A stretch of DNA of 63,003 nucleotides, filler included, from Chrysochromulina tobinii (Eukaryota), in NCBI GenBank assembly GCA_001275005.1. It is 4 parts of 4 records of this genome, joined end to end, with 100 filler letters (N's around TTAATTAATTAA, not from the genome) between each part and the next. Parts side by side here need not be neighbours in the genome. Positions count along the whole stretch, not along the records: positions 1 to 22,836 come from JWZX01000815.1; 3 more parts are not named here. One strand, given 5' to 3'. Both the position numbers and the translations under genes were made by a program. Position 1 is the first letter of the stretch. The number at the start of each line of letters is the position of its first letter. The notes beneath the pieces were generated by a model. That model ran no database searches. It was not told where the DNA came from and worked only from the letters and a program-made list of their open reading frames with translations. Shown here in pieces: positions 5,954-62,161 of the stretch.

Positions 5954-7442
5954 GCGCACGTCGAAGTGCGTCGCATGGCGGCGCTCGAGGCGGCGCGTCC
6001 CTCGAGGCGCACGCGCTGTCATGGGCGTTCGCTGTCCGAGGGAGTCGGCAAGGTCGGGCGGGACAGGGGAGCGAGGGACAGGGGAGAGGCCATCGGGGAG
6101 CAGCGTGGCCCGTCTATGCAGCGCATCAAGGGAGCATGGTGGGCGGGGTGCAGTATGGCGTGCAAGCCCCGGCGACACGGCGGCCTGCCAAGCCGATGAA
6201 GAGCGCCGACCGGGGGCACGATGGCTGCACTGGCGAGGCCACTTCCTCATGCCACTGGCGAGGCCATTGCCTCAGGCCACTGGCGAGGCCTCAGGCAGCA
6301 AGGGAGGGCAGTGGGCAGAGGGCAGGAAGGCCTACCGGAGCGCAGCAGCACGGTCTGGCGAACGTATGAACGTACGGCAACCCATGCAAGGTATGTGAAC
6401 ATCTCAGCGTGTGTGACGTGGCTGCGGGGCGAGGAACTGTGTGTGCCCGGCTGCGAGGAAAACAGTGGGAGAAGGGCGGCGGGGGCTCCCGCCTCACGGG
6501 GGCTGATATGAAACGTGTGCGCGTGGTGCGATGCCCGGAGCCCGCGCCACCGGAGACACTCGAGCGCGTGGCGGTGTGCAGACGTGCTGTCGACAGTTTG
6601 AAAAACAAGAAAGCAATCGAAATACACGTCCCGGCGGCGCCCGGCTCCAACGTGGTGAGTCGCTGCACGCCTTCGATGCACGCCTGCGCGCATGGTCGCT
6701 GGACACAACACCGGATTTACCGGTACGTCGAGTTCTTCACGACGAAGCGGCACCCCGCGTTACCGCCCCCCTGCTCTGCAGTGCGCGTGTCGGGGGGCGC
6801 CCTCGTCGCGTCTCTCACAAAAACGGGCCACCACACTAACGTCAACGCCCCTTCTTGACTTACAGACATGTTCACACCTTTCGCCGTTCCGCGCTTGGTG
6901 CACTGTCAATCATCGAGTCCTTCGCTCAACGTGCGTCGGTGCGATCGCTGCACGCGCACACCGCACTGCCTTCGCACACGGAATATATCGAGTCCGCTCA
7001 GGTAGGTACTTTCTTCCACGGTGCCCGCGGGCACACTTTTGTATCTCAGGGAGCACACATGCCCTTACCCCTATGCCTCCCTTTGTCTCACTCGCGACCG
7101 TGGGCTTTTTCGCGTGCCTTTCCGCAGTCGCGCGCCGCCGCCGACAAGTCGGCCTCCCTCCTCTCCGCCCCCGCGCGTTTCACCGCCCAGGTGACTGCCC
7201 AATCCTGAGACCCCGAGCTGGGCTGCCTCTCACAAGGGCATGCGACTCTCCGTTCGCCATGAGCTTCGGAGCCACACTCCGCACGCGATTCCCCTCATCC
7301 TCGCGGCACGCTGTTGGCTGTTGCTGTCTGCGTCGAGATCCTTCAAGCGCCCTTCGAGCTTTCAGCCGCTTGTGGTCCGATATCTCCATGCTGCCGAATA
7401 CACACGCCGCCTAAGCCTCTCTTCTTCTCTCTTGTTCGCAGG

Positions 7443-8905
7443 ATGATTGCGATGCTCATCAACTTTGTAGCGGAGAAGACCAACGCGAGTGCTATAAACT
7501 CGGTCGCCTTATCCCCGGACGGGACGAAAATTGTCTCGGGGTCGGACGACGGGACGATCAATGTCTGGGATTCGGGTGCGCTTTTGCCCTCAAATCGCCC
7601 ATCCTTGGCCACCATTGACACCTGCTGGCTTGTCTGGCAGGCGCGCTGGGGCTGTTGAGCGAGAAGACGAATGCGCATGCTTCTGGCATCATGGGCTCCA
7701 TTTCCTGCGTCCAGTTTTCCCCAGATGGATCGAAGATCGTAAGTTGCGGCATTACCGACAAGACGATCAAAGTCTGGGATTCGGGTTCGCCGCGAGCTCA
7801 AAATCGCCCCTCCTTGGCCAAAACTGACGCCTGCTGGCTTGTCTGGCTGGCAAGCTGGAGATGCTGAGCGAGAAGACGAACGCCCACAGCAGCTACGTCA
7901 TGTCGGTGGCGTTTTCCCCGGACGGGACCAAGATTGTGTCGGGATCTTACGACCAGACGATCAAAGTCTGGGATACAGGTGCGCCGCGAGCCCTCAAAAT
8001 CGCCCCTCCTTGGCCAAGACTGACGCCTGCTGGCTTGCCTGGCAGACAAACTGGAGCTACTGAGCGAGAAGACGAACGCCCACAGCGACCACATCAGGTC
8101 GGTGGCGTTTTCCCCGGACGGGACCAAGATCGTGTCGGGATCGACTGACAAGACGATCAAAGTCTGGGATACGGGTGCGCCGCCAGCTCAAAATCGCCCC
8201 TCCTTGGCCAAAACTAACGCTTGTTGGCTTGTCTGGCAGACAAACTGGAGCTGTTGAGCGAGAAGACGAACGCCCACAGCAGCAGCATCTTGTCGGTGGC
8301 GTTTTCTCCAGACGGGACCAAGATTGTGTCGGGATCGTGGGACAAGACGATCAAAGTCTGGGATTCAGGTGCGCCGGAGCCTCGAATCCCCCCTCCTTGG
8401 CCAAAACTGACGCTTGCTGGCTTGTCTGGCAGGCAAGCTGGAGATGCTGAGCGAGAAGACGGATGCGCACAGCAGCGGAATCACGTCAGTGGCCTTTTCC
8501 CCGGACGGGGCCAAGATCCTGTCGGGATCATTCGACAAGACGATCAAAGTCTGGGATTCTGGTTCGCTGTGCGAGCTCAAAATCGCCCCTCCTTGGCCAA
8601 AACTGATGCCTGCTGTGGCTTGTCTGCCAGGCGCGCTGGGGCTGCTGAGCGAGAAGACGAATGCCCACAGCCTCTGGATCCAGTCGGTCGCGTTTTCCCC
8701 GGATGGGACCAAGATTGTGTCCGGATCGCACGACAAGACGATCAAAGTCTGGGGCATGGTCAAGTGGTCTCGCAAAGATCATTTGTTGTTCAATGATACC
8801 ACCCAGCAATTCGTCTTGCTGCTGCTGTGGCTGAACAAATACAGCATGAAGTTCCCTGATGATGTGCTTGATCTACTCATCGAAGCTTGCTTGCAAAGCA
8901 AATAA
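7443..8905 (+). CDS. Seven-repeat WD40 protein, one repeat per exon; exons 7443-7575, 7641-7784, 7850-7978, 8046-8174, 8240-8368, 8433-8561, 8631-8905
   Basis: Each exon encodes AH....[22 protein letters not shown]. Six homologous 64-69 nt phase-1 introns separate them (five GT-AG, one with TG at the acceptor). Further 5' exons are possible. Confidence 0.85.
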
Positions 8906-12270: not shown

Positions 12271-13547
12271 TCAGAGCTGCCTCCCTGTAGAGACCCACGC
12301 CGGTAACGTAGGCGGCCGCTCGCGCCTCTCCTTGGCGACGAGGTACTCGAGGTCCTCCCGCTCCTCCGCCGTGACCACGAGCTCCTCCGCCTTCGCCCAC
12401 TCGCCCGTCTGCAAGTAGTACTGGAGCCACTCCTTGCGTGCAGCCTCCTCCTCCTCCTCGGAGAGCTCGGACTCGGACGCGTCGGCACCACCCAGGCTCG
12501 CGCCCGCCGCGCCCATGCCCTCGCCCGCGCCCGCCGTCTCGCGAGCTGTTCGAGGCGCATCGTGCGGCGCCACCCGATCTGCTCGATACGACGCGTTACC
12601 GATGCGAGATTGCGCCGCCGCTACCCATCCCGACCCCCGCCGAGGCTCCCCCTCGCGAGCCCCCCCCACCCCCGGATGCTCCGGGGACGAGGTCGGTACA
12701 CCTACGTGATCCGACGCTGGGCCGTAGGGCTCTCGATCGGAGTGCATGCTGCGTGCCTCTCTCCGTGCAGGCTGATGGCCTCCCTCATCAGGGCCGTGGC
12801 CGTCGGGCTCGGCGCGGCGTGGCGATGGCTTCTCCTCTGGCTGCTCGGGCTCAGCGCGGCCGCTCATCGGGTCGATCCGGGCTCCGGGCATCGGCTTACG
12901 CCGCCCGTACTCGTCGAGCACCTGAGGAGGGAGGCAAGCAGCACGCCATCAGAGATGCAACCAGCATGTGATCGGCGATGCCATCAGCATGCCATCAGAG
13001 CGCCGACCCGTCTCACCTTCAGATCTGGCTTGCGGTTGAACTCGATGTCGATCAGCCGTTCCTTGGTCATCTGGATGCGGTTGTAGTTGAGGCCGCCATA
13101 GATGACCTCAAAGACGAGGCGCTCCGGGTAAAGCACCCCGTTCAGCAACTTCTTGAGCAGCGGCGGATCCACCTTCTTGAGGCACTCGATCGACTGCTCG
13201 TAGTACGCCTTGGCCGCCTCGAACTCACCCATGCAGTGCAGGCAGAAGCCGATGTTGTGCACAAAGGTGCCGCGCGTGCCCGGGTCGGCGCACGACTTGG
13301 TCTTCTCCGACACGGCCAGCGCGTTCGTGAACAGGTTCAGCGCCTCCTCCCAGTTCTGCGCATAGCACTCCTTGCTCGCCTCCTTGAGCAGCTTCGCCTC
13401 GAGCGCCGTGAGCTCGCTCATGGCGACGTTGGCGCCAATCTGCGCGTGGTACTGCTGCACGCTGTCGAAGATCTTGGCCGACACCCGCTGAACGCCAACC
13501 TCCTCGTGCCACTCCTCGCGCGAGGAGGTTGGCGCGGCGGAGTACAT
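12271..13547 (-). CDS. TPR-containing protein; exons 13547-13017 and 12921-12271
   Basis: TPR-like helices (EEALNLFTNALAV, HNIGFCLHCMGEFEAAKAYYEQSI). A phase-0 GT-AG intron at 13016-12922 joins the two ORFs. Confidence 0.75.
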
Positions 13548-13728: not shown

Positions 13729-16700
13729 ATGGACATTACGAAGTTCTTCACCAAGAAGCCGGCCGCCGCGGCGGCGAAGCCAGCCGCGGACGGCATCGAG
13801 CCTGTTGCGGGCGCGTCGGCCAAGGTCAAGCGCAAAGCCGAAGACGACGTTGCCAGCGCCAGCGCTGGCGATGCTGCCGCCGCCGCCGAGGCCGCCGAGG
13901 TCAAGAAGAAGGCGCTGCCCAGTGCAAATGGCCACACTCCCGTACCGCCCGTGCGCCAAAAAGTCGACCCTGCATCCTTCTTCGCCATGGGCAGCAGCGC
14001 GGCCAAGCCAATGCCCTCGTCCTCTGCCAAGGTTGAGCAGTCCGCAGCGCCGCCGCCCAAGGCTCCGGTGGCGGAGCCGAAGGCAGCGCCGAGCGAGCCG
14101 GAGCGCGTGAAGCGGCATCGTGATGATGACGAGAACGCCGGCCAGGCCGACGGTGCGGCGGCGGCCAAGCGGCCCGAGCACACCACCGCAGGCACGAGCA
14201 AGCAGAAAGGGCCGTCGGATAAGCGGCCGACGCCGCCGCCCGCGCGCGCAGCCCTCGACGCATCGTCCAGCCCGGCCGGAGACGGCAGTAGCCCGATCGC
14301 GCCGCTGAGCGCCGACTTCGCGCCGCCGCCGCCGAGCAAGTGGTACCCGGGCAAGAAGGACATCGCGCCGCCCAATAAGGGCAACAAGCGGGTGCCCATG
14401 GCGGCGCCCCAGTGCCTCGCAGGCCTCACGTTCGTGATCACGGGTACGATTGCCTCTGATGGCCTCTGATGGCCTCTGATGGCCTCTGATGGCCTCTGAG
14501 TGTGCCCTTCTTGAATGGCATGCTGATTGCCTCTAATGGCCTCTCTCCTCCTCAGGCACGTTGGACTCTCTCGAGCGTGAGGAAGCCGCCGCTCTCATTG
14601 AGCGCTTAGGTGGGCGCGTGACAGGCTCGGTGAGCAGCTACCTGCCTACGATTGCCTCTGATTGCCTCTGATTGCCTCTGATTGCCTCTGATTTCCTCTG
14701 ACGACAGGCTCGGTGGGCAGCCACCTGCTCCTGATTGCCTAGGATTGCCTAGGATTGCCTAGGATTGCCTCTGATGACAGGCTCGGTCAGCAGCAAGACG
14801 AGCTACCTGCCCCGTGGCTGCGACGAGCATGGCTCTGAGTGCATGCTAATGGCCTCCCTCATCAGTGACGAGCATGGCTCTGAGTGCATGCTAATGGCCT
14901 CCCTCATCAGTGACGAGCATGGCTCTGAGTGCATGCTAATGGCCTCCCTCATCAGGTGAGCAGCAAGACGAACTACCTGCTCCGTGGCTGTGACGAGAAT
15001 GGCCAACCAATGGAGTCGAGTAAAGTGACCAAGGCGCGCGAGCAAAAGGGATGCAAGGTGAGCGACGAGGAGGGCCTCTGATAACCTCTCTGAGTGCATG
15101 CTGATTGCCTCCCTCATTAGGTTAGCGACGAGGAGGGCCTCTGATAACCTCTCTGAGTGCATGCTGATTGCCTCCCTCATCAGGCCCGCCTCTCTGAGTG
15201 CCTCTTTGAGTGCATGCTGATTGGCTCCCTTATCAGGTGATCGATGAGGATGAGCTCTTCGACATCCTTCGCAAGACGGCGCCGCAGCCGCCAGAGTCCC
15301 CTGAGCCCGTGGAGGAGGAGGAGGAGGCGGAGGAGGTCGCGGCGCCACCTGCCGAGGTGCCGAGGCCCATGGGTGTGAACATGGGTGTGAAGCGCGAGGG
15401 CGGCGCCCTCTCCTCCACCTCCACCTCCACGGGCTCGGCGGCCGGTGCAGGCAGCAGAAGCGGCGCCGGCGCCGGCGCAAGCTCGAGCGCAAGCAGCAGC
15501 AAGGCGCCGGGAGGGCCAGTGCCCGCGCGCATGCCTCGCGAAGCCACGGGCGATGAAGCACCGCCCCTCTGGGCCGAAAAGTATCGGCCAACGGCCAAGA
15601 CGCACCTTGTGGGGAATGCCGATCAGGCGAGGCGACCCGCTGGCCTCTCTGATGGCATGCTGATTGGCTCGCTCATCAGGCGAAGCTATCTGCTGGCCTC
15701 TCTGAGGGCATGCTGATTGGCTCGCTCATCAGGCGAAGCTACCTGCTGGCCTCTCTAATGGCATGCTGATGGCCTCCCTCATCAGGCGAAGCTATCTGCT
15801 GGCCTCTCTGATGGCATGCTGATGGCCTCCCTCATCAGGCGAAGCTACCTGCTGGCCTCTCTGAGGGCATGCTGATGGCCTCCCTCATCAGGTGAAGCGA
15901 CTCGAAGCGTGGCTGGGCTCATGGCACCGTGAGAACGCAGCGCTCGAGGCGGCGGCGGCGGCGAGGGAGAAGGCGCCCAAGGGGCAAGCGGCATCGACCT
16001 TCCACAAGGCCGCCCTCCTCTCAGGTGACCCCGCCCTGCATGCAAGTGCCCACCACGGCGCCGTTGGGCGTGTGCGTACGCTCACCACGGCGCTCACCCT
16101 CTTCCCCACAGGCCCCCCCGGGGTGGGCAAGACCTCAACGGCAAAGGTGCTCCTCCAGGCGCTCAACTACGACGTGGTCGAGCTCAACGCGTCCGACACG
16201 CGCTCGCAGAAGCAGCTGCAGGCCTTCGCCGGCGACATGGTGGGCAACACGTCGATTGCGGACTTTGCCGACGGCAAGGTGGGAGGCCAGCAGAGGAAGC
16301 TCGCCCTCATCATGTGGCTGCTCACCCTGATGACCTCTGATTGCCTCCCTCATCAGGTGGGAGGCAAGCAAAGGAAGCTCGCCCTCATCATGGACGAGTG
16401 CGATGGCATGAGCGCGGGCGACCGCGGCGGCATGATGGCGCTCCTTGGCGTCATCAAGGCCTCGAAGATGCCCATCATCTGCATCTGCAACGATCGGCAG
16501 TCTGCAAAGGTCAACACCCTCGATCTGATGACCTTTGATGACATCTGATGACCTCTGATGACCTCTGATGACCTCTGATGACCTCTGATGACCGCTGATG
16601 ACCTCATCAGGTCAAATCTCTCGCCAATCACGCTCTCGATCTGCGCTTCCGCCGCCCGGCGGCACTCGAAATCAAGGCCGCGCTCCGTCGCGTCGTCGCG

Positions 16701-18360
16701 AACGAAGGGTACAAGCTCGGCGAGGAGACGCTCGATGACCTCTGATGACCTCTGATGACGTCTGATTGCCTCCTTCATCAGGTACAAGCTCGGCGAGGAG
16801 ACGCTCGATAAGATCGCTGAGGCATGCAATGCGGTGAGTCTCTCTGATGGCCTCTGATGGCCTCTGATGGCCTCTGATGACCTCTGATGGCCTCTGATGG
16901 CCTCTGATGACCTCTGACTGCACTCGAAAAGATCGCTGAGGCATGCAAAGCGGTGGGTCCTGTTTTCGATCGATTGGGTTCTCCTGTGGGTCCAGCATGC
17001 AAGCGCTCAACACGGCGCCCGTGCCCCCTCTCCCCACACAGGACATTCGTCAGATGCTCAATCTCCTCCAGATCTGGCGCCCGGCGGCCGGCGCGCCCGG
17101 CGCGGGCATGTCGGCGGGCGACGTGACGAAGAACATGCAGAGCGCCTTCAAGGATGTCGACGTCGGCCCTTTCGACGTCGCCGACAAGTTCTTCCGCGAG
17201 CCGAATGCGGACTTCGACCGACGGCTGCGCCACTATTTCGTGGATACCTCGATGACGCCACTGCTCGTGTACGAGAACTACCTGTCCGTCTCGCCGCCGC
17301 CGCCGCCCGGCCTGCCGCCCGCACAGCTGCAGGCCTGGCTGCTGCACCGCGCGACGCTCGCCTCGGATTTCATTGCATGCTCGGATGTGGTCGGTGCTCG
17401 CATTCTGAAAGAGCAGCAGTGGGGCCTCGCGCCGCTGCACGGCGCGCTCTCGTGCTTGGCGCCCGGCTACATGATGCAGGGCAACCTCGGCCGCCTCCAA
17501 TTCCCACAGTGGCTCGGAAGGAACTCGACCGGTAACTCGAAGCGCCAACGGACCCTTCGCGCGCTCGGCGCATGCAAGTTGTGCTCACCACGGCGCCGGA
17601 CGCCCTCCCCACAGGTACGAAGCGCCAACGGCTCCTTCGCGAGCTGACAGGCCACCTGTCCGCGCACGTCTCGGGCTCGAAGGAAGAGGTGGGCTGATGC
17701 CGTTGATTGCCGCTGATTGCCTTTGATTGCCTTTGATTGCACGTCTCGGGCTCGAAGGAAGAGGTGGGCTGAGTGCTTTTGCGGGCCACTGATTGCCTTT
17801 GATTGCCTCTGATGCACTCTGATGGCTGAGCGCTCTTGAGTGCCGCTGATTACCGTTGATTGCCATTGATTGCCATGGATTGATGTGCACTGCAGGTGCG
17901 CAATAGCTACGTGCCCGCACTGCGCCCGCGGCTGCTGCGCCCGCTCGCCGAGCGCGGTACCGACGGTGTGGAAGAGGTGCTCGAGTCTCTGGATGCGTAT
18001 GGGATCACCAAGGACGACTTCGACACGATCTTCGAGCTTGAGCTCTTGGTGGGGGGGGCGGCGAAGCCGGCGCTCGCGCAGATCCCCACAGCCGCCAAGT
18101 CCGCCTTGACGCGCAAGTATAACCAGTCGCACCAGCAGTTTGAGAAGAAGAAGGGGGGGGGCGGCGCTGGCGGCGCTGGCGGTCTGATGCGTTTCACCGA
18201 CGATGGCGTCGAGGATGAAGCGGTGGAGGATGAGGGCGGCGACGCCGAAGAGGGCGGCGAGGAGGGCGACGAGGACGAGGACGTGAAGCCGGTGGCCGCC
18301 AAAAAGGGCGCCGCCTCGGCGGCCTCTGCCAAAGGCAAAGGCAAGGCCAAGGCCAAGTGA
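13729..18360 (+). CDS. RFC1: Replication factor C subunit 1; 12 exons, introns 14444-14555, 14630-14955, 15058-15236, 15627-15891 (GC donor), 16025-16111, 16279-16356, 16510-16610, 16709-16781, 16834-17041, 17532-17614, 17689-17895
   Basis: BRCT (CLAGLTFVITGTLDSLER), WAEKYRP, Walker A GPPGVGKT, ELNASDTRS, LIMDECDGM, ICICNDR, DIRQ and C-terminal FPQWLG. The frame is restored by the listed introns. Confidence 0.95.
14444..17895 (+). repeat. Cluster of repeat-built introns ((CTGATGRCCT)n ... CTCCCTCATCAG) containing duplicated exon fragments
   Basis: Decamer arrays and exon copies are visible in most RFC1 introns. Confidence 0.85.
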
Positions 18361-21643: not shown

Positions 21644-22516
21644 CGGAATGCTGACGAGTCGAGCTTGGCGATAGCAGAGACTGCGAGCTCGAGCCGTGAT
21701 GCCGCCGGTGCCGATGAGACACGTGGCGATGGGGGCGCCTCGTGCTCGCTGCTCTGATTGCATGCTGATGGCATGTTGATTGCATGCTGACGTCCTCACA
21801 TGGCGGAAGGCATGAGCATGAGGGAGAGGCGGCCGATGCGAGCCGCGCGACCGTCGACGCGAAAATCAAGCTGGTCAGATGGGGGGAAAGAAGGAGGAGA
21901 GGAGAGCAGCAGGTGCGAGAGATTGCGAGAGATTCACATGCTCATGTCTTCGCATGTGCAGCATGTCAAGATCGGTCATCATGCGTCATCGCGAGATGAA
22001 AATGTATTAACGAACGGAAAAGGTCGCACGCCCCGTGCGGGTGCGCAGGGGCGATCATATTTTAATCATATTTTTTATCATCCTCCCGTAGCCGTAGCCC
22101 GTACACACACGGACACGCCCGCAAAATCGAAAATGACAATGTCATGCGCGTGTACGCGGTCGGGGGCCGGCCGGCCAGTTGCGCCTCCTTTGCAGTAACT
22201 GTTCGGTTCTCGCGGGGGCCGCGGTACAGCGTAACTATAACGCCCGCCCTGCTGGCGAATATTGGCATGGCTCTCGGCTCCATCCGTCATATCAATCGAA
22301 CCTCGCCGGCGTGTCCGCACTGCCCCCCCACTGCCCGGCCTGAGCCTTGAGTGTATGCTCGAGCTGGGCACGCCATTCACAGCTGGAAAGTGTGCGGACC
22401 ACTGCAACTTGGCCGGTGACCGTACAAGTCCGAGGGGGTTGCGAAGGTAGCCGACAGCCGCGCTGCACTAGCCAGCTGCACGAGGTGCGGCTCGATCACT
22501 CAACCAGGCGAACGGG

Positions 22517-23201: not shown

Positions 23202-26200
23202 ATGAGTGCGCCCGACTACAGTCTCATCGGCGAGGGCTCCACGCCGTATATTGCCTACGAGGAGCCGGTCGTGCCGCCGCCTCGGCGGCCGCCGCCTCCC
23301 TCGTGCTGGCGTGCGTGCTGGCGCGCGCTGTGTGGCTGCTGCGGCCAGCGCGCGCCCGAGTGGCGCACCATCTTTCTCAACGCAAGCCCGCCGACGCACG
23401 GCTGGTACCCGCACAACCGCGTCGAGAACACCAAGTACGGTCTGCTCTCGTTCGTGCCGAAGGTGCTCCTCGAACAGTTCCGCTACTTTTTCAACTTGTA
23501 CTTTCTGCTGGTGGCGCTCTCGCAGTTCGTGCCGGTCTTCGAAATTGGGCTCCGCTTCACGTACATCGCGCCGCTCGTCTTCGTGCTCGCAGTCACCATG
23601 GCCAAGGAGGGCTACGACGACGTGCAGCGCTGGCGCACCGACACGCTGATCAACAATGAGGCGTACGAGCGACTGCAACCAGGCGGCGGCTCAATGGCCG
23701 TGCCGGCCAAGGACTTGCGTGTGGGCGATGTGGTACGCGTGAGCACTAACCAGCGCATCCCGGCCGACCTCGTGCTGCTGCGCACCTCGAGCGAGAGTGG
23801 GGTCGTCTTTGTGCGCACCGACCAGCTCGACGGTGAGACCGATTGGAAGCTGCGCGTGGCCGTGGCGTCCACCCAGCGACTGGCATCGGAGGCGGCGCTC
23901 TCGGCGGCGGTGGTCACTCTGCATGCGGCGCCGCCCACCAAGGACATCTACGAGTTCGTGGGCGACCTCACCCTATACGACGACGCGCTCGAGGGCGGGT
24001 GCGTGCAGGAGCCCCTCGCGCTCGAGAACACCCTCTGGGCCAACACGGTCCTCGCCTCGTGCGCGTGTCATGGCGTGGTCGTCCACACCGGACGCGAGAC
24101 CCGCTCGTCGATGAACGTGGCAGGCGCGCCGCCGAGCAAGATGGCGACTCTCGACCTGCAGGTGAACTTCATGACCAAGCTCCTTTTCGTGCTGGTCAAC
24201 CTGTCGGCCCTGCTCATGGTCGCGGTCCCGTTTGGGCAGGTGATGACCACTGATGACCTCTGATGACCCCTGATTGCCTCCGTTTGGCCTCTAATTGAGG
24301 TCCCGTTTGGGCATGTTTGGTCCCGTTTGGGCAGGCCTCGGCAGCGGCGTGGCGGGATGGGCAGAGCTCGGAGGGATGGTGGGACGGCGGCTGGGAGAAC
24401 TCCGCACGCAAGCTCTCGGATCGGCTCTCGGAGAGCCTCTCGCGCCTGGTGCAGGCGCTCCTCGACTATGTGTGCTTCATGCTCCTCTTCTCGCAAATCA
24501 TCCCGATCTCGTTGCGAGTGGCTCTGGACATGGCGAAGCTCGTGTACAAGCTCCAGATGACCTCGGACGAGCGGCTGCCGGGGCTGCAGGTGCGTCGCCG
24601 CTGATGGCCTCCCTCATTGCATGCAGGTGCGACTGGACAGCCCTTGACGGCCGCTGATGGCCACTGATGGCCACTGATGGCCTCCCTCATGGCATGCAGG
24701 TGCTCTCGTCGACGCTGCCTGAGGAGCTTGGCGGCATCGAGTACCTGCTCACGGACAAGACCGGCACCCTCACGCGAAACGAGATGACCTTCCGAAAGCT
24801 GCATCTGGGCGCTGCGTGTCTGGACGAGGCGATGGTGCCGGAGCTGCGCGCCAACCTCGCACAAGTGCTCCGTGAACAGCCTCTCGCCTCCCTCGCTCCG
24901 CCCGTGCCCGAGGCCCTCGGAGTGCCGCGGAGTGCCTCGGACCCCCTCGGAGTGCCGCGCTCGGCGTGCGGCGCACCGCTTCGGCAGAGCTCGCTGACAA
25001 GCAGGCTCACGGCGGGGGGGCGAGTCGGGAGCTTGTTGGTACAGCCGCCAGCGGCGCCGTCCCGCCGCTCGGCGGCGCCGCCCGACAGTTCGCTGACGAC
25101 TCCGCTGCTCTCGGCCGAAGACGCGACGGACGGCGACGGCAGCTCGTCGATGACCTTGTTCGCACGTCCAAGTGCCGCGCACAGTGCCACGCGCGAGGCG
25201 AGTGTGCCTCGCATCGAGAGCAGGACGAGCCGCACCCCGGGCAGCGGCGCCCACCACGGCGCCATCCCATCACAGCGGGCGCGTGGCGCGTGGCGGGGAT
25301 TGCGGCGGGCGGGCGGCGCCGACGAGGGAGGCAGAGACGAGGGAGGCAGAGACGAGGGAGGCAGAGACGAGGGAGGCAGTGGCGAGGAGGGCGGCAGCAG
25401 CGCCGAGGGCGGCGGCGAGGGCGACGGCGAGGGCGAGAGGATTGCTTTCGTGCAAGCCCTCCTCGCGATTGCGCTCTGTCACAACGTCTCTCCGGTGGGC
25501 GACACCTTCGACGAGGGCAGTACCGGCTGGGCACGCGAGGGCAGCGCGGAGCCGCCGCGAAAGCGCTGGGGATCGCGTGACGAGGGCGAGCACGACGCCG
25601 AACGGGGCGGCGGCGCGGGCGTCTTGCCGGGCGACTTTCAAGGGGCGTCGCCCGATGAGCTTGCGCTCGTGCGCTTTGCGGCGCGTTGCGGCCTTGTGCT
25701 CGTAGGGCGCACGTCGTCGCTGGTGACGCTGCAGGAGCCGTCGGGCCAACTGCGCGTGTACGAGGTGCTCCACGAGAAGCTCTCATGACCTCTGATGACC
25801 ACTGATGTCCACTGATGACCACTGATTGCCTCCCTCATCAGGTGCTCCACGAGATGCCGTTCACCTCCGAGTCGAAGCGGATGGGCATCTTGCTCCGGCA
25901 CGTGCCCTCGGGAGATCTCCTCTTCTATGTCAAGGGGGCGGACGCCGTCATGTCGGAGCGCGTCGTCGGCGCCGACTGGCTGGAGGAGGAGACCGGTAAC
26001 ATCCGAGTGCATCCGAGTGCTTCTGAGTGTGCAGCTGAGTGCATCCGAGTGCATCCGAGTGCATACGAGTGCTTCTGAGTGCGCATCTGGCCGACTGGCT
26101 CCATCAGGAGACGGGTAGCCTCGTACCAAGGGGCACCTCGGAGTGCCTCTGAATGCGACTGATCCGTCGCGGCGTGTGATTGCAGGTAACCTCGCACGCG

Positions 26201-28802: not shown

Positions 28803-31800
28803 ATGGCGGAGTCGCCGTCGAGCTGGTGGACGCGCGTCGAGGGCCTCTTCGGACGCTCGCCCGACTCGGGTCTCCCCGACAAGCCAGTCTTGCGCGGCGG
28901 CGGCGGGCGCGTGGGCAACGGCTCCGATGCGGCCCTCCTTCAAGCGTGCACCGTGGGCAGCAAGGAGGGTGTCGAGCAGCTCCTGCTCGAGGGCGCCAGC
29001 CCCAACCACCGCGGCGAATTCGGCGCCACGCCGCTCACCATCGCGGCGGAGTTGGGTTCCGCCGCCATCGTGGCGCTGCTGCTGGCCGCCGGCGCTGAGG
29101 TCGACACGATTGACGACAATGGCGACAGCGCGCTGCTGTGTGCGTGCCGCGTGGGCCAAGTCGACGCGGTGCGCATGCTCCTGAACGCCAAGGCCGACCC
29201 CGCGCTCACCAACTCGCAGCAGAAGAATGCGCTCGATGCGGCCATCGAGGCGCGCAACTATTACAACCGTCCGGAGGTGTCCGAGCTGCTGCTGGCGCAC
29301 CAACGCGACGACGCCGATGTGGACACGGACGCGGGCGCCGAGGGCACTGACGAGGCGAGCGACTCGGCGCCCAAGCCGGGCGCGCCCGCGACCGCCGGCC
29401 ACCTGTCGAGCCACGCGGCGCGCGGCCGGCCGACGGACGCGCTCGAGCATGTGCTGCGCCACGGGAGCGGCGCGAGCCATCGGAGCCATCGCACTGCCAG
29501 CCCTGTGGCGCCCGTGCTGCGCCTGCGCAAGGAAGAGTGGGCCCTCGACCGCAACTACCCGCAGTGCCACCTGTGCAAGGCGACCTTCACTCTCATCAAC
29601 CGGCGCCACCACTGCCGCATCTGCGCCCTGATCTTTTGCGAAGCGTGCACGGCCAACACCGTGGCCACGGCGGGCGCGCGCACGGTGCGCACTGCCACCG
29701 GAAGCACCCGCGGGGGCCTCCGACCTGCCCGCACCACCGCCCGTGTCCAGCTCCGTGGCCACGGCGACCCCCGACCCTTGCGCGCGCGCACCACCATGCG
29801 CGTTGCCGCCCCGCTCGCCTCTCCCTTCTCGCGCGCCCCTGTCAGCCCTCCCCACTCGCCCTATCCTCCGCCTGCCCTGTCCTCCCGCCTGCCCTGTCCC
29901 CGCCCATGTTAGGCAGCCCATGTTTGGCAGTCCATGTTAGGCAGTCCCCGCGGCGTCGTCCCTATACCCCTGTGGCCACCCCTCTGAACCCCGATGACGA
30001 CTCTCGCGCCACTGATGACCACTGATGACCACTGATGACCACTGATGACGACTCTCGCGCCACTGCTACAGGAGGACGGGCAGCCGATCGCGCCCGACTC
30101 GGCGCCCGTACGCGTGCGCGTGTGCAACGCGTGCTGGGCCTTGCACGCCGACGCTACCGGCGTCGCCTCGACCGCCGCGGCGGCCGGTGGACCAACGGAG
30201 ACGCGCGAGGTGCACGGCTCGCTCTTTGCCGATCGGATGCGCCGCAACGGGTACGCAACGCTCGCGCACCTCGCGACCGCCGTCTCGCTCGCGCGTGCCG
30301 CCACCTTCGAGGTCGCCCAAGGGGCTGGGGTCGCCTCTACGAAGGCCCCCTCGCCCTCCCCTTCGCCCTCCAAGCCACGCGCCTCGACCCACGCCCACGC
30401 GACTCGGCTCGACCCGGCCAAGTCGCTCACGGCGCCGCGGCTGGGCACGCTGTCGGCGCAACTTGGCGAGCCCAGCACGGCGCCTCAAGTGGCTTCATTG
30501 GACGCGGAGCTCGTGTCCCAAATTAGGGACGCGGAGCTCGTGGACTCGACGAGGGCGATGAGCACCGCGACGGACGTACTCTCCGAGCACGACGATAGGC
30601 CTGAGGCGAAGCCGCTGCCCGCCGCTGACTCGGCGCAGACGCGCGCCCCACTCGTGGCGATGCTTGGCGACAGGGACGCCGCCGACGCCGGCGCACGCGG
30701 CGGGAGCGAGGGCGGCGGCGGCGGCGGCGAGGGCGGCGGCGGCATCGGCGCGATGGTCCGCGCAAGCGTCCCTAATTTGGCAGGCGTCTCTAATTTGGGC
30801 TCTGATGCGGATCTCGATCATCTCGAAGGGGTTGCGGACCAATCCCAGCTAGGCGACCTCGCCGGCGACCCTACCTCCAAGTTCCCGAAGCACAGGCGCT
30901 CGCCTTCTGTGCCGTCGGCGGCAGAGCGCACGACTGAGCGCGACACCGACGCCTCCGATGGAAAGCCGAGCGCGCCGGGCGGCGGCAAGAAGGAACGTGG
31001 CGTGATCCTCGCGGCGCCACTGGTGCCGCCGCCGGTGGTGCAACCCGACCCACAGGTACGTTGATTGCCACTGATGACCTGCCTTGCATGCAAGTGCTCA
31101 CCACAGCGCGCCTCGCCATCATTCCACAACCCGACCCACAGGGCGATGCGCCGAGCGTGGTGGACGAGCACCGCGCCCGCCTCGGTGCGTGGAGGGACAT
31201 GCGGCTGCGCCATGCGATCTGGAGCCAGCTCTCGCTCAGCCCCGAGCTGCCCACGCAGTGGCAGGGGACCCTGGAGGTGCTTGCGACGCGCGCGGCTGAC
31301 TCACTCCGACCGGTGCGATGGGCCCTGATGACCATTGATTGCCCTTGAGTACCAGTGAGGCCCTGCCTCCGACCCGAACCAGGCGCTCAACTCGTCCATC
31401 AACGCCATCCTCAAGATCAAGACGCTGCCGGGCGGCTCGCGAGCGCACTCGCACTACGTCGACGGGCTCGTGTGTCGGCTCAAGCTCGCGCACAAGTGCA
31501 TGCGCACCGAGCTCGCCTGGCCGCGCATCCTGCTGCTCAAGCCGTCGCTCGAGCATGATTTAGGACCGGGCGTGACGAGCCTCGAGGCCAACATGCGCCA
31601 GGAGGATGAGCACATGGAGATGGTGGTGCACGAGATGGCCAAGCTGCGCGTCGATTTACTCCTCGTCGGGGGGTCCGTCTGCTTCACTGCCAAAGAGAAG
31701 CTACTCAAGCGTGGCATCGCGCTCGCGGTCGGAGTCAAGCCGCAGGTGCTCGAGCGCATCTCGCGCTGTACCAACACGACTGTCCTCCTCTCGCCCGCCC

Positions 31801-34800
31801 AGGTCGCCGGGGCGACCCCGGGTACGTGCGGCCGCTGGCGCGTCGAGTATGTCACAGTCACCGTGCCGCCCGCTGCCGTGCCCTATGCGCCTCCCTCGAC
31901 GAGATTGCATCTGGGCGATCTCGATTCGTCAACGATGGCTTTCGGGATGCCCGGGATGGGCGGCGCGGCCAGTGCGCCCACAAGCGCGCTCGTTCCAGCG
32001 GGATCGGGCGCCGTCCCGGGCGGGCACGCCGCACCGGCCGCGACCAAACGAGTGACCCTCATGTACTTTGAGCGATGCCCACCGGAGTTGCTCGCCACGG
32101 TCGTGCTGCGCGGGGGCGAGCCCGCCGAGATGAAGGCTCTCAAGCAGATGCTCTCCGCGTCCGCATACGTCGCAGCCGACCTGCGAGCGGAGGCGGCGTA
32201 CCTCTTCGAAATGGGCGGCACCACCGCCCTGCCCTCGCCCAATGCGCTCAACACGACGCCCAGTGCGCTCAACACGACGCTCGCTGGCGCCGCCGTTTCG
32301 AGCGTCGGAAGCGCTCGAGACAGCGCTCTTCACGGCGCGGCGCCCAGCCCCTTGGCGCGGCTCCAAGGGGGTGGGGGTGGGGGTGGGGCGTCGCCGCCGA
32401 GCGCTGTCTCGAGCGTGCCCAGCTTGCCCAACCTCGAAGCGAACCACGAAGCCAACTTGGCCATGCGGCCCGGCGACGCGGCGCACGCGCCCAGCGCCGT
32501 CTCGAGCGCACCGGCGGCAGCCGCACCGGCGGCGGCGCTTGCAGGCGCGGCGAGCGGCGCGCGCCCCGTCTCGCCGGCCGCGCCCGGCGCTGGGGTGTGG
32601 ACGCACTCGCGCCTACTCGACCAGCCACGTGGCAAGGCCCTTGGGCAGCCTCGCACGGACATCTCCCGCGCGGAGATCTCGGTCGAGGAGGTCCTAGGCG
32701 CCGTGTCGGGCGCGCCTTCGGGGCACAAGGGGGGCGGGCCGCCGCCCGGCTGGGGCCCCACGCTCCAAGACACCGCGGATGCGATCGCCTCCTTCCTCGG
32801 GGCCGAGGGCAACGCAGCGAGCACGGCCGCCGAGCCCGACACGGCGCTCGAAGTCTCCGCGAGCTGCTCGGGTGGGGCGGCGTCGGTCACGGCCGCGCCC
32901 CTGGCTGCCTCGACGCTCAACACGACGCTCGCAGCCCCCACCGCGCCGCTCGGCATCATCCAATCTGGGCTGCAGCATTTGTTGGGGGTGCAGCCGGCGG
33001 CCGCCGCGCCCGCGCCGCCGCCGATGAGCCATCCGACAGTGGGCACGCGTCCCACTGATGACCCGATGCTCAGCGGGAGCGGCAGCGCCACCTTCATGCT
33101 CGGCGTCACCCCCTTTAGCGAAAACCATACCACCAAAAAGGAGTCCGAGGAGTACTTTCTGTCGGCAGCGCTCGATGTGAGTGAAGGTGATCATCCGCTG
33201 AGCCTTGGCGCAGGATCGCGTGACGGCTTCATCCACCGGCGCGGTTCGAGAGACCTCCTCCTCCACAGCGCCGCCGACGCAGGCGCCGCGGCTCCGAATT
33301 CGGAGCCGGGCGCGATGGCGCCGATGCTGTGCTCCACGTGCGAAGAGCAGCCGGCGGATCGCCTCTGGCACGAAGAGGCGCGCACGCTACGTGTGGCGAC
33401 CTGTTGGAGGCGATGGGATGTGCTTGAGGCCCCGTGCCAGGTACCACGCGAGCGGCTGCTCGACTACAATCTACACAGCTCGAACGGCTCGCATGGCGCT
33501 GGCGGCGCGGAGGAGGGCGGCGTAGACACGCAGACCCTCGGCCAGTTCCTACAGAGCCACTGCTTCAACCTGCGCCGGCAGTGCGCCAACCCAAAGTGCA
33601 AGGGCACGGTGCTTGAGCACGAGCAGTGCTTCTCGCACCACGGCGGCCGCCTCTCGGTGCGCGTGCATCGGCTGCCAGCCGAGGCGACGTTACCCACGGA
33701 CGCTCTGTACGGCTGGTCAGTTTGCCGAAACTTGGCGTGTCGCCCCGGTCGCGCCTCGCCCAAGACGGCGCTCAGCTTGACCACGCTCGGCATGAGCCTC
33801 GGCCGTTTCCTCGAGAGCTGCTTCTACAACACGACCGCCACCTCGCGCGTCCCAGGCTGCCCGCACTCGCTCCACCTGCACCACGAGCGGTACATAGGGT
33901 ACGGCGGGGCTCGTGTGCTCGATGACGTACCAGCGCTGCATCGTCTTCGGCATCACGCCGCCGCTGCCGCAGCGCTTGCTGCCGCTGCCGCTGCCGCTCG
34001 CGAGGGTGCCGCCGCCGCTGCCGCCGGCCATGCCGCCGGCCATGCCGCCGCGCCTGGCGTTGACGGGCGGCGAGAGCGGCGCGCCCACCGGCGCCTCGTC
34101 CGCTACGCTCGCGGCCGACGCGTTCGGGATGGCTTCGATCGCGGTCGCGTTCGCAATCTCGTGCGATCCGTGCGCGGCCGAGGTGGCACGCGGCGTCTTC
34201 GCCGAGATCGGGCGCTTCGGCGGCGGCGGCGAGGGCACCGCGGCCGGCGGCGGCACAGATGGGCTGCCGAGTTCTCACCTTGCACAGCAGTCGAGCGAGA
34301 TCGAGCGAGATCGAGCGAGATCGAGCGAGATCGATCTGCCAAGCTCCGCCGCCGAGATGATGAGCGCGGCTCACGTCGCTGACGCGCGTGCGGACGCGGT
34401 CGTCTCCGAGTTAGGGAACCACGAGCGGCTGTGCTCAATGATGCGCTGGGCGGATGCGCTGCCCGAGGTCAAGCTGCGCTTTGAGGATGAGCTGTCCATG
34501 GGGGCTACGTTTGCCGACTTTTTCAGCGGCGCGGCGCCTGGCTGCTCACCCGGCTCGACGCAGCTGCGCGCGACCATCCTGTACCCTGCGCCCTTTGCCG
34601 CGCTGCGCGAGCGCTTCTGCGAGGGCGGCGACGCGGCCTTCCTGCAGTCGCTCCGACAAGCGAGCGTATGGAACTCGGGTGCGGGCGGCGTATCGCGCTC
34701 GACATTCCTCAAGACGGTCGATGACCGGTACCTCCTCAAGTCCGTACCCAAATCCGAGTTTTGGGCGTTCCATGAGCGCGCGCCCACGTACTTCCAGTTC

Positions 34801-54249: not shown

Positions 54250-54517
54250 GACGATGGTCGTCGGCCGAGCGAGGCGGCCCTCGGCTTCGTGAAAGCGCGA
54301 CCGTCGCGCGACCCCTTTTCTACCATGGTAGCGTCTCGAGCGGCCCAATGCTTCCGTTCGTTCGTTCGTTCGTTTCAGGGCCCTCTCGGCCAGACACACA
54401 CCCACAAGCCCCGAAAAGGCGTGCGTGGGAGGCGCTCACTCGAGCGGCCCAATGCACAACTTTTGCTGTGAAAAAGAAACTCAGAGTGGTCTCGACTTTC
54501 CGGTTCAAACGACGAGG

Positions 54518-56846: not shown

Positions 56847-59800
56847 GTGCGCCATGTAATCGAGGCACTTGTCGCCGAGCGCTCCCCTTACTTTGACCGC
56901 GCGGGGCTCGAGGAGAATGTGCGCATGCGTGCCAAATTTGGTATCGACGACGAGAAGGAAGTGGTGCTGCACGAGTATGCATGCGCCCTCATGCATGCCG
57001 ACGGGTCGTCCAATGGCAAGATCTACATCACGCGCCAGCTCATCTGCTTCTCGGGCTCCCTGTTCGGGCGCGAGACGCGCGCCATCTTCGGCGTGGCGGA
57101 TATCGTCACCGTGGAGCGAGCGGAGTCGCCGGCGCCCAACACGCTCGTCGTCACCTCGTCCACCACTGAGGAGAAGTTCACCTTTTTGCTCGACTCGACG
57201 CGCGCGCATGCGCTCGCCCTACTCCAGCAGCTCATCGCCATCGTGCACTCCGACCACTCGCTGCTCGCGCCACGCCGGCTGCCCACGCAGGGCCTCGAGC
57301 TACCGCCCGAGCCCATCCTCGAGAAGGCCAAGGCGCCGCTGCAGCCCTTTGCCCAACGCTCCCTCGCACTCTCGCCCTCATGCCTGATCGTCGCGTCTGG
57401 CTGGCGCTACCCGGTGCGTGCCTCCCTGATGACCTCTGATGACCTCTGATGACCTCTGATGACCTCTGATGACCTCCCTCATTAGGTACGTGCCTCGATC
57501 GCCACCGGCAACCCGGCGACGCTGCTGCTGCAGCCGCCGCTCGCGCTGCACAACCTGCTGCCATGCGCTCTTGAGTGGCGCCTCGTGCCGCTGCTCGTCG
57601 ACAAGCGCGAGAGGGTCGAGGAGCGCCTGGGCGGGCATGACTTTTGGGACGAGGGGGACCCGGCGATTGGGTGGGTTAGGGAGCTGCCACCCGAGGGCTG
57701 CCATGACTTCTATGAGCTGCCCTTCTCGGGACGATGGGGTCTGCAGCTGCGCCTCCCCGGCTACGATTGGTCGGCCTCCGTCGCGGTCGACATGACCTCG
57801 AACACCGAGGACACGGAGACGGTGCGCCTTCGCTCGCTCTCGGCCGAATCCAAGGATTTGCGTGTGCAGCTGCGCCATCGTGCGGGAGCGAGCCGGGCGC
57901 GCCACCTGCTCCAAGTGCTCGTCTCGTACTGGCTCGTCAATGGCACCGGGCTCACGCTGCAGTACAAGCGCCGCAAGCAGCTCACGCCCGCGTCCAATGA
58001 CGGCGGCGGTGGCGGCGGCGGCGGCGGGAGCGGCGGCGGCGGCGGCGGGGGCGGCGGCGGCGGCGGGGGGGCCCGCGAGGACAACAGCTCGATCGGTGGT
58101 AACGGCCTCTCGTCGGCGCTCGTGGCGGTGGACAGGGCGCTCGCGACGGCGCGCTCCTCGCACACGGACGACGAGAGCTCGACCTCCGAGATGTCGATCT
58201 CGACCTCCGAGATGTCGATCTCGAGCCCGCTGTCCCGAGCGCGCTCCGGCATGCCCGCGGCCGCGGCCGAGAGAGAGGGCGCGGCCGCCGACAGCTTGCA
58301 GAACACGCTCGACCACGAAGAGATGGGCGCCATGTTGGGCGCCATCGAGGCTGAGGCGGAGGCGGGCCTCGAGGGCGAGCAGTACGCGTCCGACCAGCAG
58401 ACTCTCCTCTACTCGGTGCCCAAGGGTGGCAGGCAAGGACTGCACTGCATTGCCGTGCGCGTGGTGGGCGACACAGCCGGCTTCGTCACAGCCGGCTCCC
58501 GCCAAGCGGAGCGGCAGCCCGAGAAGGCGCAAGGCTGGTCGCCTCCCTTTTCGCTGCTCCTCGGGCCCTTCCAGGCAGAGCGCACCTTCCGTGCCGGCGC
58601 GTACGACCTGGCGGTGGACATCAAGCCCGTGCAGACGGCGGCCCGAGAGCTCACCAAGGTGGTCACCATCGTGCAGCGCTTCTGGCTGTGCAATCAACTG
58701 GATCTCGCTGTCGAAGTGGAGCAGTGGGGCGGGCCGGCTGGCCAACGTCTCGAGCAGCCGCTCATGCCCCTCGCCGTGTCGGAGCGAGCGCCCTTTCATT
58801 GGCCCAATCCCAAGGTGAAGGAGGACGCGAAGCTGCTGCGGCTGCGCGCGGCGCCGGGGCAGGGCGCGGCTGGCTTCTTGCCAACACCCGATCAAGGGTG
58901 GAGCTCGGGCTTCCCGATTGACACGCCGGGCTGCTTCGTGGTCCACTGCGACCAGGGTGTGCCGCCTAGCGAGCCTGGCTGGTGGGCTTCACTGCTGCGC
59001 ATCATGGTCCACGTGCAGCCCATCGGCGCATGCATTGAGATCTCGTTCACACATGCGCCCGTGTCGCCCGCGCCCTACCGGCTGGACAACCGCACACCGT
59101 ACGCCTTCTCAGCACGCCAAAAGGGGGCCGAGCACCTGCTCCCGTTACTGGTGCCGCCTGACAGCCAGGCGCCCTTTGCGTGGCCCGAGTCTTCCCTCGA
59201 GCATGTGCTCTTGTGCTACCTCGCCCCCCCGCCCCCGCCGCACGCCGCCAAGCGGCGCGTTGAGGAGCCCCCTTATGGGCTGCCGCCGCCGGGCGCGTCC
59301 ACGACGGCGTCGCAGCCACGGGGCGCGCGCCCGAGGCCCGAAGTTGAGCCGCTCAAGCCGCGGGAGATGAGGCCGAGATCAGGCCGAGATCAGGCCGAGG
59401 CCAAGCCGACCCTCGTGCGCCTCGATGCGATGATGCGCTCGGTTCCGCTGCCCGTGAGCCCCGCGAGCGCGCTGGCCGAGTGGCTCGGTCTCGAAGACGA
59501 GCAGCCGACGGCGAGCAGCGCACACATTGGCTATTCACACATTGGCGCGGGCGGGCTGGAGCCGCCGCATGTATCTTCGCACGCCAGCACGGTGGCGCCC
59601 GTCATGGCGCCTCGGGCGGCGTGGGTGCATGTTGGGATGCAGGGCGGGCAGCGCGTGCTCACCATCTCGATGGAGCGCATCGAGGCCGAGCTCGCGAGCT
59701 CCGGCGCGGACGAAACCGTCAAGCTCTTTTTGGGCATCTCGCTCCATTCGATCGGCATCTCGATCGTGCACGCCGGGCATGAGGAGCTACTGTACGTGAG

Positions 59801-62161
59801 TGGGCAGCAGCTGAGTGTCGACTACGTGCTCTCGAAGCGCACGGCCACGATCGAGGCGACACTGCTCGCGTTCCAGATCGACAACCAGCAGGCCTCCGCG
59901 ACGCTGCCCGCCGTCCTCTCCCTCACCCCCGGCGCAGGCGCAGGCGCAGGCGCAGGCGCAGGCGCAGGCGCAGGCGCAGGCGCAGGCGCAGGCGCAGGCG
60001 CAAGCGTCGGCGCAGGCGTCGGCGCAGGCGGCGGCGCAGGCGGCGCTGAGGAGTCGCAGCCTCCGGCGGCGCACCTGAGCATCGTAAAGGATCTCCGCAT
60101 GCAAGGCGGCGCGGTGGACTGGTGGGACTACGTCTCCTTCCGCCTCCTCGAGATCGACGTGGCGCTCGAGCCGTTACTGATCCAGTCGGTGCTCGACTTC
60201 ACACTCGCGTCCGAGCTGCTCGGGCTGATCTCGTTAATCTCCGAGCTCACGCCCAAGCAGACGGACGAGGCGCTGCGCGAGCGCGCCGCACGGCGCGTGG
60301 CGCGCCAGGCGCTGCGAACCGAGCTGCTTCGGTATGGGGAGGCGCAGCGGCGGTGGTACTTTGGCAAGCTCGAGCTGCACCCGGTCAAGCTCAACCTCAC
60401 CTTTCGCCAGCCGCAGCCGCACGGCGAGGCCTTCACGGAGGCGTTCACGCTACCGATCCCGAGCGTCGATGGAGCGCCACTCTGCTTGTCGGCGCTCATT
60501 CGCGAGCATCTGTACGGTCTGCCCGATGACCTCATCGTCGCCATCGGCAAGCATTATCTCTTCGCGCTGCTCCGGCAGGTGATGACCTCTTCGTGATGAC
60601 CTCGTGATGACCTCTTCGCGATTACCTCTTGATTACCAATTGGGTCGAAGCGCTGATGACCTCAGATGCTCGCTAATGACCTCGGATGACCTCTGAGTGC
60701 CTCCCTTCATCGGCTGTTACGGCAGGTATACCGCGTCATCCTGCGTGTCGAGCCGACGGGCGCGTCCGACTTTGTGCGCACGCTTGGCACGGGTGTCAAG
60801 GATCTCTTCTACCTGCCCGCGAAGGCCGTCGTGCGCTCCCCACGCGATTTCGGACGCGCCGTCGCAGCGGGGGGCGCTTCGTTCGCACGCGGCGTGATGC
60901 TCGCGCCGGCGCGTCCGGCGGGTAAGATGGCCGCGTCTCTGCTGAGCTCGACAGATCGAGCGCTGCAGGCGATGGCCATGACGTCTTCCGGAGGGGCCCT
61001 GACGGTGAGCGGCGCGGGCGGCGGCCGACCAGAGCAGGAGTACCACTGATGACGACTGATGATTGCATGCTGATTGCCTTTCCCATCAGGTGAGCGGCGC
61101 GGCGGCGGCCTACCAGAGCAGGAGTACCACTGATGACGACTGATGATTGCATGCTGATTGCCTTCCCCATCAGGTGAGCGGCGCGGCGGCGGCCGACCAG
61201 AGCAGGAGCACCACCACTGATGACGACTGATGGCCTCTGAGCTCCACTGATTGCCTTCCGCATCAGGTGAGCGGCGCGGCGGCCGAGCGGAGCGGTGGTC
61301 GCATGCTCTTGCAGGGAGCGACTGGATTCGGCAGGGGGGTGCTCCACGGTGCCGTGGGCCTCGTGCAGGAGCCGTACATGGGAGCGCGCCGTCGCGGTGC
61401 GTGCGGCTTTGCCGTCGGCGTTGGCAAGGGGCTTGCGGGCGCGGTGATCCGGCCGACGGCCGGAGTGCTCCAGCTGACCAATAACATGGCGGGCGCGTGG
61501 GTGGCGATGACTCATGGACTCACGGGCGGCGAAGGCGGCGAAGGCGGCGCCGGCGGCACGCGCGGCCCTGGACGAGTACGCCCGCCACGTATGTTGCACG
61601 ACCAGCTGAGGCGGATTGCGCCCTTTTCGATGGCTGAGGCGCTCGCGCGGCACGTGCTCACGACGGCGGAGGAGGGCCAGTACTTGCAAGAGCCGTTGCT
61701 GCACTGCGACCTGCTCGGCGAGGCAGGCACCACGAGCGCCGTGATCGCCGTGCTCACTGGGATCCGTCTACTCACCGTCGACTCGAGCACATGGCGCGTG
61801 CAGCTCAACGTGCCGTTGCGCAAGCTGGACTGCAGTCGCGTATGGACCGCCGAGTCCGCAGCACGTTCTCTTGCTGCTCCTCGAGCCCAAGCGCGCGGCA
61901 GCCGCCGCGGCGGCGGCTGGGGCGGCAGCGGCGGCCGCCTCGGCCTACGGCGAGTCGCCCTCGACGGCCAAGCTGCCTAATATGGGGTCGGCCGAGTTGC
62001 GCAGCCTCGCGTGCCACTCTGAGGATGCGGCGGCCACGCTGCACGACCACCTCGTGGACGCGCTCGCCTCCCTGCGCGCGCGCCGGCGCATCTGGCACTC
62101 GGCGCGCTCGGGCTCGGGCGTGAGTCAGCGCGAGCACCATCCCATCTCCGCCGCGCTTTGA
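56847..62161 (+). CDS. VPS13: VPS13-family lipid transfer protein, C-terminal part with a GRAM domain; introns 57414-57485, 60579-60725, 61005-61266; apparent frameshift near 61834
   Basis: VAB repeats (PPLALHNLLP, YWLVNGTG, RFWLCNQL, PYRLDNRT), FQIDNQ, LGTGVKDLFYLP, GVGKGLAGAVIRP and RVRPPR. Confidence 0.85.

Follow-up and report, generated by a model that had tools for sequence, protein, structure and literature searches.

The segment 16709-16781 was confirmed to be a spliced GT-AG intron of a haptophyte gene for replication factor C subunit 1 (RFC1). Its first 28 nt are identical to the first 28 nt of the exon at 16782 (29 nt with the upstream G), while the remaining 45 nt are a repeat module common to the introns of other genes. 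In the window (the whole stretch of DNA analyzed, 63,003 nucleotides from four contigs, with the N spacers between them included), inserts of this type were found next to duplicated exon sequence in three layouts, one of which is not spliced, and the haptophyte relatives examined contain no intron at the focal site. The best overall explanation, to which we give an even chance, is that the focal intron was gained by insertion of a repeat with a long target duplication of variable length, copied by repair and then filtered by splicing. Its two parts differ in strength: gain by insertion with duplication is well favored, whereas for a repair-templated, enzyme-free route belief and doubt are about balanced.

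Structure and splicing of the focal intron

The host gene and the parts of the intron are as follows.

13729..18360, plus strand: host gene RFC1, 12 exons and 11 introns
16709..16781, plus strand: focal spliceosomal intron, GT-AG, 73 nt; RNA joint, contig arithmetic, and open 970-aa frame
16708..16736, plus strand: first copy of the direct repeat, 29 nt (last exon G and 28 intronic nt), source of the GT donor
16737..16781, plus strand: inserted module, three 10-mers followed by TGCCTCCTTCATCAG, source of the AG
16781..16809, plus strand: second copy of the direct repeat (G of the AG and the exon's initial 28 nt, which encode YKLGEETLD)

Removal of the 11 introns from 13729-18360 left one open frame of 970 residues, corresponding to RFC1, and comparison of the protein with homologs revealed no alignment indel attributable to splice junctions. 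The closest named homolog was that of Prymnesium parvum (55% identity), which places the host organism among the haptophytes. The focal intron is in phase 2 and interrupts the Gly codon of ANE-GYK (amino acid 611); when it is retained, the frame stops at amino acid 622 of 970. In RNA, 16707 was joined to 16781 with a skip of 73 nt (GT..AG), and a single contig of run X13 contained joints that skip 78, 101, 73 (the focal intron), 208, and 83 nt, all GT..AG. Furthermore, distances across this region in the RNA contigs of runs X12 and X13 (607 and 472) were exactly the sums of the spliced exons. This support consists of assembled contigs, not reads, with expression levels and rare isoforms outside its view. 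Assembly collapse is unlikely as the source of the skip: the 29-nt repeat is shorter than the 31-letter words of the contigs (a word length that is itself inferred), and the same contig also skips four neighboring GT-AG introns.

The original prediction of an intron that is spliced at these junctions and begins with a perfect copy of the next exon was thus borne out. The chance of the match was ~4e-15 (26 letters after the GT), and within the 29-nt repeat GT/GC..AG is possible from one cut only. It had also been proposed that the duplicate provides the GT and the insert the branch point and AG: the origins of GT and AG stood, and CTGAT at 16762-16766 in the module is a putative branch point. 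The remainder of the intron consists of three 10-mers and a 15-nt end closing with AG; the 10-mer composition originally given was corrected, the third 10-mer being GACGTCTGAT.

The 20-nt end of the module (with up to 2 mismatches) occurred 20 times in the window versus 0 in 100 shuffles. All 11 introns of RFC1 carried repeat 9-mers also present in introns of other genes, and sense-strand 9-mers common to other genes' introns were found in 22/22 introns of the survey below. In DNA run X1, 7270 contigs were placed on a 6.1-kb stretch, mostly at repeats, where depth does not equal copy number. A pattern scan of viral contigs gave 0 matches, and scans of prokaryote genomes gave 0 and then 17 loci, 15 of which were unlike the repeat family; the other two (L087 and L096), filed in bacterial MAGs, look like contaminating eukaryotic contigs. 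L096 has a radical-SAM-like gene (named by eye) with a pure-repeat intron between AG|GT and without a long copy, and the exon copy can therefore be minimal.

Several observations concern the distribution of the repeats. The repeat vocabulary was also found in sense orientation outside introns, just 3' of two plus-strand coding regions (21754-21790 and 62158-62176). Module-bearing introns were patchy among 11 genes, with 11 in RFC1 and none seen in zinc-transporter-like, TPI-like, and topoisomerase-III-like genes (named by eye); a rough overdispersion test, for which coding lengths were judged by eye, gave p 0.0005. No 10-mer array was seen in the contig at 41459-56668, of which 53001-55999 was covered by scripted scan only. 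A WD40-like gene (7441-8900) contains tandem units of ~194 nt, each with its own intron and without the repeat module.

Layouts of insert and duplicate in the window

The survey set consisted of 22 introns from five repeat-bearing genes (RFC1, 11; P4-ATPase, 4; FAB1-like, 3; VPS13-like, 3; TPR, 1) and is not random; introns of other genes (the WD40 and ribosomal-protein genes among them) lie outside it. Nine introns were supported by RNA (eight of RFC1 and one of TPR), seven by homology and frame, and six by frame continuity alone, and the donor of intron 29685 is one of 20 frame-compatible choices. Intron ends were scored against their own flanking exons, with the first two letters dropped and a threshold of p<0.01 each. 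The members discussed here, together with one unspliced unit, are listed below.

14630..14955, plus strand: compound intron with several next-exon copies; boundaries by homology only
15058..15236, plus strand: compound intron of three units (ends at 63/126/179) with a decayed copy; boundaries by homology only
15627..15891, plus strand: compound intron of five 53-nt units with a GC donor; three units in the strain-like locus L021
16279..16356, plus strand: sister intron, next-exon copy 34/36; RNA joint; identical in L021
16510..16610, plus strand: sister intron, decayed next-exon copy, p 0.069 alone (not significant); RNA joint
17532..17614, plus strand: intron with a second 3' module type (3' end GCATGCAAG..CCCCACAG) and a decayed next-exon copy; RNA joint
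24240..24334, plus strand: mirror intron that starts with the repeat GTGATGACC and ends with a 16-nt previous-exon copy giving the AG
25765..25841, plus strand: intron of the P4-ATPase gene, next-exon copy 13/13
31056..31141, plus strand: mirror intron, 15-nt previous-exon copy; frame continuity only
57414..57485, plus strand: intron of the VPS13-like gene, next-exon copy 10/11; frame continuity only
60579..60725, plus strand: mirror intron, decayed previous-exon copy; frame continuity only
61005..61266, plus strand: compound intron of three units, each opening with a next-exon copy; frame continuity only
12720..12797, plus strand: unspliced unit, antisense in a coding exon of the minus-strand TPR gene; repeat-to-repeat span 78 nt

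A next-exon copy at the intron start was found in 9/22 introns, and the mirror layout, in which a previous-exon copy at the end supplies the AG, in 3/22; the remaining ten had neither, and the two copies never occurred together in one intron. Among the 22 introns, summed scores were 133 for next-exon copies (21 for shuffled pairings; p 1e-5) and 43 for previous-exon copies (15 for shuffled pairings; p 1.4e-4). The exons after all nine next-exon-copy introns start with GT, and all three mirror introns follow CAG and open with a repeat-derived GT. The next-exon copy was present in 8/9 introns with an intact 20-nt end versus 1/13 of the others (p 0.0002). Single-unit duplications were ~10-36 nt, with individual lengths of 11, 13, 15, 16, 28, and 36 nt. 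Recurrence of the focal layout at 16279, 25765, and 57414, as originally described, therefore held. With regard to the decayed forms also proposed, that at 15058 does carry a copy, with its end corrected to 15236 and three units recognized; that at 17532 has a clear copy but a different 3' module; and that at 16510 did not reach significance by itself.

The unit at 12720-12797 has flanking repeats that are 12/13 alike, is in frame, and contains a perfect 20-nt module end; it starts with neither GT nor GC. Two RNA contigs (covering 12717-12918) run through it, and 21-27 residues were absent at this site in all eight aligned homologs (21 were found), although the region is a loose linker. These results suggested that the insert-plus-duplication event needs no splicing, and this unit is the main reason for reading the event as DNA insertion that was later filtered by splicing, although it is possible that the unit is spliced from an overlapping plus-strand transcript. 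Together with the mirror layout (3/22), it indicates that insertion plus duplication is the broader event, of which the insert with a GT-supplying duplicate is just one outcome to survive.

The same unit bears on plain tandem exon duplication (Rogers model; PMC3443670), in which repeat and 3' end would have grown locally by slippage under splicing selection. The model is established, the arrays clearly expand by slippage, and CTCGAT at the end of the copy resembles the 10-mer. However, the duplicate in that model holds both splice sites without a foreign insert, whereas 45 of the 73 nt of the focal intron are shared module with the AG inside it, and the previous-exon half needed for the AG is not there. 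Moreover, the 20-nt end recurs across unrelated genes far above shuffled expectation, and its perfect occurrence in the antisense site is beyond the reach of sense splicing selection. This alternative, largely refuted by the antisense unit, is very improbable.

Other introns in the window showed further structure. A second shared 3' module (GCATGCAAG..CTCACCACGGCGC..CCCCACAG) was present at 16025-16111, 16834-17041, 17532-17614, and 31056-31141, and many contigs of other loci match it. The whole compound intron at 15627-15891 is gone from an X12 contig, whereas record 26 of X13 starts within its last 53-nt unit (15833-15891) and continues into the exon; the intron may be retained in part, or tandem acceptors may be used. 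In intron 25996-26185, a decayed copy spans the spliced junction within a GAGTGCATCC-type 10-mer array. The FAB1-like frame is broken at 33890-33960, near amino acid 1666 of the model, where no intron was assigned, reflecting either an unannotated intron or a sequence error.

Empty sites in relatives and age of the copies

In two haptophyte loci the coding sequence was uninterrupted at every site compared: L022 (haptophyte clade, genomic, with two introns of its own) at 6/6 covered sites including the focal one (54-73% identity) and L003 (13-kb contig) at 11/11 sites (46-57% identity). No intron at amino acid 610 was found in the 11 loci aligning well there, taken from the best-scoring 80 of 490, a selection that favors intron-free copies; one flagged break at this position was a stop codon, not an intron. 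An intron at the exact site in distant orthologs, which would have argued against recent gain, was thus not encountered among the haptophyte relatives compared. At the focal site the codons are GGC TAC in five haptophyte loci and GGG TAC in the window gene, indicating that a change from GGC to GGG in the latter created the GT. The nearest relatives (L001 and L002), identified from a quick tree of 26 rows used for nearest neighbors only, may be transcripts. On the side of L022, its intron at 175-315 is an 11-nt tandem array at a position that is intron-free in the window gene. Emiliania introns are rich in repeats of 10-11 bp, with which this array agrees.

At the strain level, L021 was near-identical (8 differences in 837 exon letters), and the five introns it touches were all shared. 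Lake runs X17-X19 yielded nothing but short fragments of the repeat and two pieces that look strain-like, and none of these reached the focal intron. No empty allele was found at the introns covered by L021 and the lake-run pieces, a cover outside which the focal intron lies.

Alternatively, the introns may be old and only their edges new, one end having been overwritten by boundary duplication (as in amphioxus 'mirage' minisatellites) or by partial conversion with a spliced cDNA. Consistent with this, introns 16834 and 17689 contain internal copies of the end of the previous exon plus the donor (36 and 31 nt), the decayed copy in 25996 spans a spliced junction, the number of compound units differs between strains (5 and 3), introns are common to the strains, and the position of intron 17532 is a single codon away from where fungal-looking loci of other eukaryotes have an intron, which counts against recent gain there. 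On the other hand, L022 and L003 share no intron position with the window gene, and no break at amino acid 610 was found in any of the 11 aligned loci, nor in gene calls retaining other introns (P0021 and P0025) or situated on long contigs (P0015, P0024, and P0059). Furthermore, the copy begins at intron position 1 without an older 5' remnant in nine introns, and the antisense exonic unit offers no intron to edit. The copies also hold older codons than the exon (see below), against recent conversion. We consider this alternative improbable, and insertion with duplication, likely recent in the host lineage in the case of the focal intron, is preferred.

Of the seven introns displayed, three have a decayed copy that still encodes the relatives' residue at a place where the exon has diverged: Gly found in 7/9 relatives (intron 15058), Thr of the two nearest of nine relatives (16510), and Arg found in 6/6 relatives (24590). 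The focal copy reads GYKLGEE, the version found in its own lineage. The copies thus differ in age, and the focal one belongs to the later ones. The age series originally proposed was therefore sustained in part, by the older codons; the accompanying expectation that duplicate identity would track repeat purity failed, since the copy score showed no trend with module purity (rho -0.29, p 0.45; nine introns with intact ends), and mismatches of 0/28 and 2/36 do not distinguish an order (p 0.5).

Mechanism of gain and comparison with known systems

A staggered break or a polymerase template switch, when filled in, would produce a duplication of variable length (~10-36 nt in single-unit cases), with the 3' part of another intron as the probable template for the filler. 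Selection would then retain insertions in which the duplicate starts with GT/GC and the AG of the filler closes the intron (9/22), those in which the duplicate ends with CAG and the GT of the filler opens it (3/22), and an antisense unit whose length is a multiple of three in a loose linker (1 case). Whole units are likely multiplied afterwards through unequal crossing-over of the copy with the exon. Fill-in repair with a copied template is consistent with the duplication's variable length, the raggedness of the filler, the two different 3' modules, and the secondary events that take the same form at donors and within introns. Junction microhomology was 3 nt at the focal site, and a donor match was found in 7/11 events (summed p 0.024); this support is weak, because the other 4/11 had none and one of the two 3-nt matches is probably due to chance. 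Local hopping or templating between neighboring introns was not adopted, their likeness being not significant (p 0.34 overall and 0.07 in one contig).

If the module were a non-autonomous element mobilized by an enzyme, either SINE/Penelope-type through target-primed reverse transcription or an HUH element, the outcome and the splicing filter would be the same. Read antisense, the module opens with a constant sequence (CTGATGAGGGAGGCAATCAG) and its 10-mer tail varies; an enzyme-driven element of this kind, fixed at one end and tailed by a repeat, accounts for the data nearly as well as fill-in repair. The 20-nt end is near-constant in nine introns and the antisense unit, and the variable length of the target duplication is as in SINE or Penelope-like elements. 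Such duplications also flank non-LTR insertions (PMC9977147) and Replitron-1 insertions (PMC10288648); a Replitron protein has been reported from Chrysochromulina tobinii (PMC10288648), and introner families are listed for at least 16 Chrysochromulina MAG rows. However, the other end and the interior of the module vary between copies, mirror-type introns are without the fixed end, an unrelated second 3' module also stands behind a duplicate (17532), and no partner element was seen in the 63-kb window. A search of 14400-18000 in Rfam gave no match at the gathering level and three below the threshold. A MITE reading from CTGATGA/TCATCAG was rejected, the inverted repeat being only 7 bp (-5.4 kcal/mol); neither terminal inverted repeats nor a fixed short duplication was present, duplication lengths being variable. 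We regard the enzyme-driven route as the main, though rather unlikely, alternative to the repair-templated one.

Introners are known that take one of their splice sites from the duplicated target: the donor from a 4-bp TSD in Symbiodinium and the acceptor from a 4-bp TSD in Chrysochromulina (Gozashti et al. 2022, 10.1101/2022.06.06.494994, PMC9860276). Similarly, in the window a repeat makes introns with one site carried and one taken from the target, in both polarities and in a group (haptophytes) included among introner hosts. The focal intron is a precisely spliced insertion-type intron, related sequence exists in many copies in introns of unrelated genes, and the orthologous site is empty in relatives (distant haptophytes only). 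In contrast, window duplications are ~10-36 nt versus 3-9 bp for introners, and the copies are alike at one end only (the 5' ends are site-specific exon copies in 9/22) and of low complexity, the module being largely 10-mer arrays; such features were filtered out in that survey (PMC9860276). The focal intron thus works like a donor-co-opting introner, yet is not one by survey criteria. The accessible part of a 2025 introner survey lists 0 families for C. tobinii, and two module motifs gave 0 matches in part of one supplementary file of the 2022 survey and in 12 of the 14 files of the 2025 survey; introner consensus sequences deposited elsewhere may include a relative of the module.

Introns that Daphnia pulex gained at staggered double-strand breaks (Li et al. 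2014, PMC4202315) share with the focal intron a direct repeat of neighboring exon sequence at the insert's other end (29 nt in the latter), internal repeats, and later growth. The Daphnia repeats are 4-12 bp and their filler is AT-rich and mostly of unknown source, whereas the filler in the window is one recognizable family with a ready 3' splice end. In Rogers tandem duplication (PMC3443670) an exon copy likewise gives a splice site, and the spliced product has the exact original coding sequence, but both sites come from the duplicate, while one comes from foreign filler here. Compound sister introns resemble amphioxus mirages (PMC3087553), being tandem units of intron end and exon start with unstable copy number and unharmed splicing. 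Mirages lie inside an existing intron; in the window, intron position 1 is where the first unit begins, different genes share the module, and the focal intron is a single unit without an older 5' part. Chlamydomonas Replitron-1 and non-LTR insertions (PMC10288648, PMC9977147) share variable target duplications and one ragged end, but have lengths of 0.9-3.6 kb or more, defined termini, and a known enzyme, and the available parts of these papers contain no report of them as intron makers. A figure of 20-40 bp for duplications left by Chlamys Penelope elements was not confirmed in PMC8557442, which gives a 30-40 bp tail. No title or abstract start in our literature search, which lay mostly outside subscription literature, described the repeat family, and no account of such repeats was found in the accessible part of PMC4580454.

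For most gained introns the source sequence is unknown. In this case one 63-kb window contains the source (the shared 3' module), the footprint (the long target copy), and the filter (three layouts, one unspliced). Only tentatively, we propose that intron 3' ends are copied by DNA repair into breaks with doubling of the target and without a transposase, each new intron becoming a further template; if true, this self-feeding route would escape introner surveys and leave dated exon fossils at intron starts. Copies that store older exon codons provide a built-in clock for ordering gains. Because DNA and RNA runs of this organism are public, repair-templated and enzyme-driven gain can be tested against each other directly by counting across the whole genome. 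Published introner screens would miss the long-copy class by design, and intron gain may therefore be undercounted.
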